Shown in pieces: positions 22,571 through 24,484 of a stretch of DNA of 64,000 nt. The position numbers and the translations under genes are program-made. The stretch lies in assembly GCA_012813795.1 (NCBI GenBank), contig GCA_012813795.1_4087.1; one strand, written 5' to 3'. The stretch comes from a phage. Every line of letters begins with the position of its first letter. Position 1 is the first letter of the stretch. The notes under the pieces are model-generated. The model saw only the letters and a program-made list of their open reading frames with translations, made no database searches and was not told where the DNA came from.

Positions 22571-22738
22571 TCATCATCGGTGCACGATATGCATCAGTAC
22601 TTCTTCGTCTAGTTCAGTACTTAAGAATGCTTTGTACATGCACTTAACACGTATAACATCCCACATTCTAGAATCTAATGGTAGATAATAAGGATTCCAC
22701 TTTAATTTCTGGAGTTTCAGCCATTCTTCATGTGTCAT
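22571..22738 (-). CDS. MTHEEW-family small protein
   Basis: 55-aa ORF MTHEEWLKLQKLKWNPYY; below track cutoff; ATGA-coupled to upstream paralog. Confidence 0.4.
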
Positions 22739-22899
22739 ATTCGTACCATTATTTCAATAAAGAACCACTGATACGCTTCATGGTTTACAAGTTTATCGTA
22801 TTCTGCTGGGTCAGATAAGATTACCCAATGATATTTTCGCCAATTACCTATACCCGAATATCTAAAATTAATATCATTCATCCATTCTTCATGTGTCAT
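22735..22899 (-). CDS. MTHEEW-family small protein
   Basis: Start set at internal ATG (MTHEEWMNDINFRYSG) which overlaps the upstream stop. Confidence 0.45.
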   Translation of the reverse strand: MTHEEWMNDINFRYSGIGNWRKYHWVILSDPAEYDKLVNHEAYQWFFIEIMVRI

Positions 22900-23063
22900 G
22901 AGCGTATCATTAACTCCATTACAAACCATGTATAATAGCCATTCAACACATACATTTGAAGCTTTTCTGGTGTACTAATATACTCCCAGTGGTATGTTCT
23001 ACATATACCATCAACACCACTATATCTTTCTTTTAGATCGTTGATCCATTCTTCATGTGTCAT
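22896..23063 (-). CDS. MTHEEW-family small protein
   Basis: Manually translated 55-aa ORF MTHEEWINDLKERYSGVDG. Confidence 0.4.
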   Translation of the reverse strand: MTHEEWINDLKERYSGVDGICRTYHWEYISTPEKLQMYVLNGYYTWFVMELMIRS

Positions 23064-23087
23064 GGTTTAACCTTTAATTAAAATTGG

Positions 23088-23166
23088 CCCAGGCGACAGG
23101 ACTCGAACCTGCATACTCCAGTTACTCGATTAACGACGGTTTAGAAGACCGTTGAGATACGCCCGG
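23088..23166 (-). tRNA. aberrant tRNA-like element (possible pseudo-tRNA)
   Basis: T-arm GCAGG-TTCGAGT-CCTGT, acceptor CCGGGCG/CGCCTGG and CCA are present with an anticodon-like hairpin ACGGU-CUUCUAA-ACCGU (UCU), but no D-arm fits by hand. Confidence 0.3.
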
Positions 23167-23173
23167 ATGTTGG

Positions 23174-23260
23174 CGGTGAAGGTGAGATTCGAACTCACGG
23201 AGGACTTTCACCCTCGCTAGTTTTCAAGACTAGTGCATTAAACCGCTCTGCCACTTCACC
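23174..23260 (-). tRNA. tRNA-Ser (anticodon UGA), type II
   Basis: 87 nt: acceptor GGTGAAG/CTTCACC, D-arm GCAGAGCGGTTTAATGC, anticodon stem CTAGT/ACTAG loop CUUGAAA, long variable arm, T-arm GTGAG-TTCGAAT-CTCAC; CCA encoded. Confidence 0.8.
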
Positions 23261-23309
23261 AGTACTAATAATTATATCACATCTTTTTGAGTTGTCCAAG
23301 ATTTTTTGA

Positions 23310-23379
23310 AGCGGCATTTCGAAATCGAATCGAACAGCAGTGGAAATCGGAAGTTTCACCTCGCACCTTGCGATGCCGC
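23310..23379 (-). tRNA. aberrant tRNA-like element
   Basis: Perfect 7-bp acceptor GCGGCAT/ATGCCGC and T-arm TTCGA-TTCGATT-TCGAA, but the middle is too short for normal D and anticodon arms. Confidence 0.25.
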
Positions 23380-23397
23380 ATAGTACTATTTATCTTG

Positions 23398-23574
23398 TTA
23401 TTTTTTGTCTCTAACCGCAAGCTCAAAGATGATCCAGTGATTACTGTTTTCATCTAGTACACTACATGCGAACTTACATTTATTGCGTAAAATATCGTAA
23501 TGTCCATCAATAATACCATTACCAAATCGATCATATTTATTCTTTAATAGATTAAGCCATTCTTCATGTGTCAT
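23398..23574 (-). CDS. MTHEEW-family small protein
   Basis: Manually translated 58-aa ORF MTHEEWLNLLKNKYDRFGNG; ATGA-coupled to upstream gene. Confidence 0.4.
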   Translation of the reverse strand: MTHEEWLNLLKNKYDRFGNGIIDGHYDILRNKCKFACSVLDENSNHWIIFELAVRDKK

Positions 23575-24074
23575 TTACGTTGCATCCAATGTGAGCCAGT
23601 CCATACTTTTTTCTTTTCACGTTCTATCTGTCGTTTTTTTAATTCTTCATCCCACAGGATATTGTCATTCAAGAAATAGTCATATAGTTCTTTTAATTTC
23701 AAATTATCAGAAAATGCGGGAAAGTACTTATTATCGCATACCAAGCTCTCTTGGAAATGTGCATCTTCATCTGTGATGTATCGATATGTAAAAATTCTAT
23801 TCGGGTTTGGATAGATACCATTTGTTTCAGAGAAACATTTTCTAAGTAGACTTTTACCAAAATCACAGATAATAGTGTCTTTACGAACAAAATTCCAGCG
23901 AGTAACCATTGTAATTGTTAGAGTTTGATAATTCTGATCTAAGCTTATTCGATGTTCACCATCTTTGTGCTTATAGTGATAAGTGCCCTGTTTTCGAACT
24001 GTTCGTTCAAACTCATTAATATTAATTTTACTTAAAATTTCAGTAATACTTTCCGGTACATGCGTAATGAGCAT
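23571..24074 (-). CDS. hypothetical protein, possible EE-x-FFQ family relative
   Basis: 167 aa; internal DEDAHFQESLVCDNKYF resembles the family motif. Confidence 0.5.
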   Translation of the reverse strand: MLITHVPESITEILSKININEFERTVRKQGTYHYKHKDGEHRISLDQNYQTLTITMVTRWNFVRKDTIICDFGKSLLRKCFSETNGIYPNPNRIFTYRYITDEDAHFQESLVCDNKYFPAFSDNLKLKELYDYFLNDNILWDEELKKRQIEREKKKVWTGSHWMQRK

Positions 24075-24119
24075 TATTGATCTCCTGTTTAAAACAAAAG
24101 AATAGCATATATATCAGTA

Positions 24120-24302
24120 CTAGTCAATTTTTTTACCTCTAACCGCAAGCTCATAGATGAACCAGCGATTACTATCCTCATCCAAGACAAATGATTTGAA
24201 CTTGTTCTTATCTTTTAAAATATCATAATGACCCTGGCGTACACCAAAGCCAAAATGATCATGTTTGAATTTTAATTCATCTAACCATTCTTGATGTGTC
24301 AT
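24120..24302 (-). CDS. MTHEEW-family small protein
   Basis: Start set at MTHQEWLDELKFKHDHFGFG, ATGA-coupled to upstream paralog. Confidence 0.4.
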   Translation of the reverse strand: MTHQEWLDELKFKHDHFGFGVRQGHYDILKDKNKFKSFVLDEDSNRWFIYELAVRGKKID

Positions 24303-24484
24303 GTGTAACATCCAGTTGTTCGTGCTATAGCGTACATAGTCCCATAGCAATCATAATAGCTAATGATCGAATTGAAATAATCATCACTATCACGTAAAAT
24401 ACTTCCAAGACCACCGAATGCGAAGAAGAAAATATCATTTTCATACAGTTTATCGTTTCTTTTATGCCATTCATCTAGTGTCAT
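24299..24484 (-). CDS. MTHEEW-family small protein (variant MTLDEW)
   Basis: 61-aa ORF MTLDEWHKRNDKLYEND. Confidence 0.35.
   Translation of the reverse strand: MTLDEWHKRNDKLYENDIFFFAFGGLGSILRDSDDYFNSIISYYDCYGTMYAIARTTGCYT

Follow-up and report, generated by a model that had tools for sequence, protein, structure and literature searches.

The 64-kb stretch of phage DNA analysed here (GenBank assembly GCA_012813795.1, contig GCA_012813795.1_4087.1; hereafter the window) carries, around positions 22574-24484, an array of six small open reading frames (ORFs) of 54-61 amino acids (aa), designated m1 to m6, which are almost certainly genuine genes of a single protein family. All of them were found on the minus strand, both in the ORF listing and by direct reading, at the places where an earlier sequence-only reading had put them; for m1 the ORF was confirmed, but the end assigned to it (22571) takes in a second in-frame TGA and was corrected (Table 1). 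That reading had further proposed a shared start, MTHEEW-(L/M/I)-N, which holds in part: the first six residues are exact in m1-m4, but substituted in m5 and m6, and Asn at position 8 is present in m2-m4 only. When the window was translated in all six frames, the relaxed motif M-T-[HL]-[EQD]-E-W turned up six times, each time at one of the m1-m6 starts; in 60 first-order Markov simulations it did not occur. The chaining of the genes by ATGA on both sides of the tRNA genes, also noted before, was read in the sequence as four overlaps of 4 nt (m6/m5, 167-aa ORF/m4, m3/m2 and m2/m1), the second of which involves a larger ORF without a Pfam match. Gene m2 would code for 64 aa if an upstream ATG were used instead of the MTHEEW one, and m3 has AAAGG 8 nt 5' of its ATG. 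The interleaving of tandem small genes with tRNA genes was mapped in the window and in its relatives; downstream of the array, on the same strand, the window continues with ORFs of 89 and 127 aa, a NUMOD4/HNH gene and tRNA-Ser(act), tRNA-Met, tRNA-Asn and tRNA-Thr.

Table 1. Coordinates of the array genes and of the features around them in the window.
Feature	Position	Strand	Description
m1	22574-22738	minus	54 aa, MTHEEWLK; core member; ATGA-coupled to m2; double stop TGATGA
m2	22735-22899	minus	54 aa from the MTHEEW ATG, MTHEEWMN; core member; ATGA-coupled to m3
m3	22896-23063	minus	55 aa, MTHEEWIN; core member
m4	23398-23574	minus	58 aa, MTHEEWLN; core member
m5	24120-24302	minus	60 aa, MTHQEW; core member
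m6	24299-24484	minus	61 aa, MTLDEW; divergent member; heads the gene chain; stop overlaps the m5 start (ATGA)
167-aa ORF	23571-24074	minus	PHROG 22160; between m5 and m4, ATGA-coupled to m4; outside the small-protein family
tRNA-Ser (anticodon tga)	23171-23260	minus	between m4 and m3
tRNA-like element	23088-23166	minus	4 nt past tRNA-Ser(tga), 22 nt before the m3 start
Sigma-70-type promoter match	25754-25782	minus	near-perfect, intergenic
Weak sigma-70-like match	24099-24127	minus	TTGACT-17-TATTCT, 9/12, TG; 5' of the 167-aa ORF
Sigma-70-type promoter match	23271-23298	minus	TGGACA-16-TATAAT with TG, 11/12; just 5' of tRNA-Ser(tga)
Sigma-70-type promoter match	22536-22563	minus	TTGACT-16-TATAAT, 11/12; right past the m1 stop, starts the next unit
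Sigma-70-type promoter match	21074-21102	minus	near-perfect; just before tRNA-Ser(act)
NUMOD4/HNH homing-endonuclease gene	21124-21681	minus	between the array and the tRNA-Ser/Met/Asn cluster
tRNA-Ser (anticodon ACT)	20972-21063	minus	A at the wobble position
Hairpin	24723-24746		terminator-like; between the DUF1353 gene and a 71-aa ORF upstream of m6

The substitution pattern of the six ORFs is that of protein-coding genes. The ratio of nonsynonymous to synonymous substitution rates (dN/dS, Nei-Gojobori) was 0.10-0.38 in 26 of the 28 pairwise comparisons, which covered orthologs and old paralogs, while the two remaining pairs, with values of 0.60-0.72, both included a recently duplicated copy in phage 121Q (L003 7374). 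The codons of the conserved N-terminus varied synonymously among 33 family genes (ACA 26, ACG 5 and ACT 2 for Thr; CAT 24 and CAC 7 for His; GAA 26 and GAG 3 for Glu), with the His and Glu codons used roughly as in the genome and ACA enriched over ACT for Thr. The only nucleotide repeats were some 20 nt at the start of each gene, of which the first 18 nt are nearly identical in m1-m5, and the m4/m5 pair (71%); conservation across all 54 residues was seen at the protein level only. The paralogs share 20-35% protein identity, yet they have kept their length and reading frame. The dN/dS of 0.10-0.38, the synonymous variation within the MTHEEW codons and the confident fold prediction described below ascribe the conserved nucleotides to coding, and, on such comparative evidence, we hold m1-m6 to be real genes with little room for doubt.

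Five of the encoded proteins (m1-m5) matched PHROG 10970 at profile positions 1-55/56 with E-values of 6.5e-15 to 1.6e-28, while m6 did not match this cluster and was placed in PHROG 31562 (residues 2-54, E 1.2e-5). A hidden Markov model (HMM) built on m1-m5 recovered exactly these five in the whole window and missed m6. The alignments of the core and the m6-type proteins could be joined over their full length by hhalign (probability 94.4%, E 8.6e-8, 58 columns), and an iterative HMM search recruited m6 at round 3 via intermediates from L005 and L006, which are uncultured metagenomic relatives. As judged from these profile comparisons, PHROG 10970 and PHROG 31562 are one superfamily with m6 as a distant homolog, so that the family of six named in the sequence-only reading consists of five close members and a distant one.

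The orthologs are annotated as hypothetical coding sequences in Asteriusvirus records: gp118, gp121 and gp125-127 in 121Q, gp386/387/391-393 in PBECO4, A4_142/143/145-147 in A4 and gp094-gp096 and gp099-gp101 in phAPEC6, with 121Q gp114 and PBECO4 gp393 as the m6 orthologs. Sequence searches of Pfam, NCBIfam and PDB with the family proteins gave nothing significant. The sole return from BFVD was an uncharacterised viral protein, 64% identical and presumably a family member, and few proteins were gained by searching with the superfamily alignment of 49 sequences. The family was not described in the literature found on Asteriusvirus, phAPEC6, Sharanji, fEgEco12, CBB and PA5oct. Already known are the PHROG clusters, which keep the two groups apart and carry no assigned function, and the GenBank hypothetical proteins; the superfamily link, the dynamics of the array, the range of copy numbers and the test of the tRNA association given below were in no paper found.

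The AlphaFold2 model of m4, made with a 37-sequence alignment (pLDDT, the predicted local distance difference test, 83.8), has helices at residues 3-14, 23-30, 32-40 and 47-53, suggesting that the proteins are all-alpha with four short helices. Always-hydrophobic columns alternate in the alignment with hypervariable polar ones, and the conserved polar residues are T2, H3, E5, K11, D15, H25 and R55. The proteins are soluble and rich in aromatic residues (18%); they are near-neutral, with a median isoelectric point (pI) of 6.5 and a net charge that ranges from -6 to +6 among the members. Capping boxes at the N-terminal ends of helices are well established in protein structure, and the invariant N-terminus of the family, which is constrained at the amino acid level, fits such a box (T2-x-x-E5, just before helix 1) followed by the core residue W6; this would account for its invariance in structural terms. 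A metal site was also considered, either with the N-terminal Met-Thr-His as an X-X-His copper/nickel motif or with His3/Glu5/Asp15/His25; both versions are speculative, and the distant subfamilies have not kept His3 and His25.

The region matched the Asteriusvirus jumbo coliphages A4, PBECO4, 121Q, phAPEC6, JP4 and others (348-386 kb) with 83-97% identity, identifying the window by sequence as part of an Asteriusvirus (PBECO4/121Q/A4-like) genome. No matching record spanned more than 59% of the 4.2-kb query, indicating that the region is mosaic between close relatives. Searches with tblastn, using two different members, returned 35 and 37 phage records, all from Escherichia/Salmonella jumbo phages of the PBECO4/121Q (Asteriusvirus) group, and a profile search run exhaustively against 1.84 billion representatives produced about 24 small proteins besides four spurious long ones. 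A scan of IMG/VR returned 121Q alone, while the DNA pattern of the tandem starts picked up three further loci in metagenome contigs, all of them Asteriusvirus-like and none from an independent lineage. The family was found only in Asteriusvirus and its close uncultured relatives.

A comparative map of the window, eight isolate genomes (including 121Q, labelled L003) and the relatives L005 and L006 showed variation in copy number. The isolates have 3-6 core copies and one m6-type copy (4-7 in total), arranged by recurring positional types: the m1 type is always the last, the m2 types stand before it and the m4/m5 types lie upstream. The number of copies after the tRNA pair is two in A4 and three in the window, 121Q, phAPEC6 and WPEC3, and the m3 of the window is of a type carried by none of the eight mapped isolate genomes. 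The m5-m4 spacing of 545 nt is common to the window, A4 and WPEC3, the latter with a 504-nt coding sequence annotated there; in PBECO4 and 121Q the place of the 167-aa ORF is taken by a short spacer or a tRNA-Gly. The largest arrays were found in the two uncultured relatives, whose conserved genes have about 72-75% nucleotide identity to those of the isolates: 12 members in L006 and at least 17 in L005 (Logan ERR4503900, a 78-kb contig). In the latter, around 29 consecutive ORFs of 50-68 aa run on one strand from 3842 to 8319 and end just before a tRNA cluster; seven small ORFs in the middle of this run (4843-6103) did not link to the family in hhalign (probability 12.5%), hence the count of at least 17 instead of 29. 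These seven have the look of a second small family, with only a short central motif in common. One of the copies in L016 is truncated. Old paralogs with conserved orthologs, together with local duplication and loss, point to birth-and-death rather than concerted evolution, probably by tandem duplication of whole gene units.

In every genome examined the family genes are on the strand of the tRNA genes, 21-25 nt downstream of a tRNA-Arg or a tRNA-like element and, where a tRNA-Gly is present, 26-29 nt upstream of it; the arrays of L005 and L006 end 146-438 nt upstream of a tRNA-Leu. The tRNA-like element of the window scored 32.6 bits against the Rfam tRNA model (gathering score 29) and was not called by ARAGORN. 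Its parts include acceptor and T arms, a long variable region and an anticodon-like loop, CUUCUAA (UCU); a single-strand fold pairs no D-arm, and in 121Q the element is annotated as tRNA-Leu(taa). At the site after tRNA-Ser(tga), phAPEC6, UE-S1 and JP4 have a canonical tRNA-Arg(tct) unrelated to the element, whereas the sequence in A4, PBECO4, 121Q and the window is a different one, of tRNA-like type. Sequences about 82-96% identical to the tRNA-like element, mostly unannotated, are also found in phages with genomes of about 64-149 kb; these carriers we take to be Felix O1- and rV5-like coliphages, among others. The sequence-only reading had suggested from the position beside tRNA genes a role in tRNA or translation biology, and a search of related phage tRNA regions for the same N-terminal motif as a check. 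In the Rak2-like phage CBB, a 20-kb region with about 20 tRNA genes contained no family member, while its tRNA genes are interleaved with unrelated small ORFs and a DUF1353 gene, which makes the interleaving a property of the region and not of the family. All occurrences being in one lineage, the adjacency to tRNA genes is shared synteny and not independent co-occurrence.

Among the promoter-like sites of the region, the only near-perfect ones (11-12 out of 12 positions) are all on the gene strand in intergenic DNA; matches are present at equivalent positions in 121Q, and one lies ahead of the L005 array. For CBB, the region CBB_390-546, rich in RpoD-like promoters and short hypothetical proteins, was proposed to be early and to serve host takeover, the timing being a proposal only (PMC5259590). 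The early region of CBB resembles the window in being AT-rich, with many short ORFs on one strand, sigma-70-type matches, tRNA genes and a DUF1353 gene; CBB belongs to the same clade, but its small ORFs are unrelated in sequence to the family. From the near-consensus promoter matches and the CBB proposal we infer early polycistronic tRNA-mRNA transcripts. Host RNA polymerase would read such mixed transcripts early from the sigma-70-type promoters, and tRNA processing would then cut them, separating an upstream unit (m6 and m5 and, from the weaker promoter, the 167-aa ORF with m4) from the downstream m3-m2-m1. Most likely, then, the genes are made early in infection.

The reading that we favour, though by odds only a little better than even, is that of a lineage-restricted superfamily of tandem-duplicated, early-made proteins that bind host factors. 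Its parts are of unequal strength: the genes and the family are close to certain, while the function, taken by itself, has somewhat less than an even chance. On this view the superfamily has an accessory role, is carried in early operons of the sigma-70 type and probably binds host factors; its small proteins would neutralise or redirect these in host takeover or counter-defence, with the paralogs covering different targets or target variants. The proposal comes from context and analogy, namely the small size, the lack of a domain, the narrow range and the early-type promoter-like sites. T4 AsiA, T7 Gp2, anti-CRISPR and other anti-defence proteins are small early phage proteins binding host factors, and tandem amplification in viruses is exemplified by the poxvirus 'genomic accordion' and by the multigene families of African swine fever virus. 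With these systems the family shares the small size without an enzymatic domain, the narrow range, the probable early expression and the tandem change in copy number; it has no sequence or structural similarity to them, so the likeness is one of analogy and not of membership. T4-like phages have plastic regions in which tRNA genes are gathered with homing endonucleases and small lineage-specific ORFs. The window has the same mixture of tRNAs, small ORFs of no known function and a mobile HNH endonuclease with a high gene turnover, but unrelated singleton ORFs are usual in T4-like phages, while here one family dominates, its tandem amplification reaching at least 17 copies in a relative.

Four points weigh against host-factor binding. 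The structure and sequence neighbours include none that points to a specific activity; selection on the orthologs is purifying and not positive, an arms race thus not being demonstrated; the total of promoter-like sites is not above that in shuffles of this AT-rich DNA, leaving only the near-perfect matches as suggestive; and the literature searched yielded no transcriptome, proteome or expression paper for Asteriusvirus.

The alternative that survives best, although we consider it unlikely, places the partners inside the phage: the proteins would act in phage transcription or replication, as small regulators or adaptors, or else serve in assembly or as internal proteins of the virion. The purifying selection seen across the genus on each positional paralog is as compatible with conserved housekeeping partners as with host targets, and the seven conserved polar residues could form a fixed binding or metal site. 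However, members are gained, lost and swapped between close phages, and related genera with the same core machinery lack the family. Furthermore, the main text of the paper on the virion proteome of phAPEC6 does not name gp094-gp101, a weak test of the virion variant.

Slightly less probable still is that the proteins act on phage tRNAs or on translation; they could be tRNA chaperones or help to process tRNAs, be associated with ribosomes, or inhibit host defence nucleases that cleave tRNA and so work together with the replacement tRNAs. The common strand and close adjacency to tRNA genes hold in all genomes examined, including the divergent L005 and L006, the junction persists also where a different tRNA-like element has replaced the tRNA-Arg cassette, and co-transcription from the promoter match just 5' of tRNA-Ser is plausible. 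Confined to one lineage, however, this association amounts to a single evolutionary observation, and the tRNA region of CBB does without a member. The proteins are not consistently basic, as their pI and charge range show, and the searches with them gave no domain or fold of an RNA-binding protein or a tRNA enzyme. Nor does the copy number follow that of the tRNAs: at least 17 copies lie beside 7 tRNAs in L005, compared to 6 copies and 6 tRNA-type genes in the stretch of the window that was mapped.

Two further explanations have a low probability. One joins the array and the tRNA genes into a single module against host defences that cleave tRNA, in which the phage tRNAs would replace the cut host tRNAs and the co-transcribed small helical proteins would act as diversified inhibitors or decoys of anticodon nucleases and similar effectors. 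Such a module would explain why the genes stay beside tRNAs, at 21-29 nt, while their number and sequence change; we give it little weight. The other, similarly improbable, regards the tandem copies as dispensable or selfish duplicates that persist while doing little or nothing, having multiplied through unequal recombination at their conserved 5' ends. The roughly 18 nt that are identical or nearly identical at neighbouring starts could drive unequal crossover, the copy number is variable, one copy is truncated, and homing endonuclease genes are nearby (NUMOD4/HNH in the window, T5orf172 in L005). This is opposed by a dN/dS well below 1 in every ortholog set and by old paralogs that are still intact, with the hydrophobic core kept and a confidently predicted fold. 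The NUMOD4/HNH gene is annotated in JP4, WPEC3 and UE-S1 and is not annotated at this place in A4, PBECO4 and 121Q; it is probably mobile, given its annotation at this site in some relatives only. The T5orf172 gene of L005 lies within the tRNA cluster. The weakest explanation, that the repeated stretch works as RNA or DNA, for instance as a promoter or processing site, and that the ORFs are there by chance, could appeal to the start region shared by m1-m5 and to another short DNA signal, AGTACT, abundant in the genome, but it is effectively excluded by the substitution pattern, the synonymous changes within the conserved codons and the shortness of the repeats, which do not go past the start region, and Rfam detected no non-tRNA family at the gathering score in the surrounding 8 kb.

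What can be taken as settled is that the small ORFs are real genes, that the two PHROG clusters are one superfamily and that the adjacency to tRNA genes is not to be read as function. If the proteins do bind host factors, they would make up a compact, naturally diversified set of binders of about 55 residues from therapeutically relevant jumbo coliphages, and the array would be a clear phage example of an expanding and contracting tandem multigene family.

Several other features were observed in the window and its relatives. The palindrome AGTACT occurs 146 times in the 64 kb, where dinucleotide shuffles lead one to expect 15.6 +/- 4.2; it is found between genes and, within them, in each of the three codon phases, and its density of 2.3-3.5 per kb is similar in 121Q, in L005 and L006 and in the more distant CBB. 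It often stands just before an extended -10 element (TTGACT-N9-AGTACTG-TATAAT), and the longer form AGTACTGGAYA has 34 matches, with 2.3 expected. The literature search found no paper mentioning this signal. Two AGTACT sites also make up part of the hairpin listed in Table 1 (ATGAGTACTGCTTGCAGTACTCAT), which has a perfect 10-bp stem and is followed by a T-run on the gene strand. The site of tRNA-Ser(act) is occupied by a GCT version in some relatives, and both versions are present in JP4 and WPEC3. The Sharanji paper reported that Asteriusvirus encodes a tRNA adenosine deaminase, which, with the ACT anticodon, raises the question of inosine at position 34. Finally, a protein identical to m5 is labelled in one source as an Escherichia coli hypothetical protein (ABV23_RS01095), most likely originating from a jumbo-phage genome deposited in a bacterial assembly.

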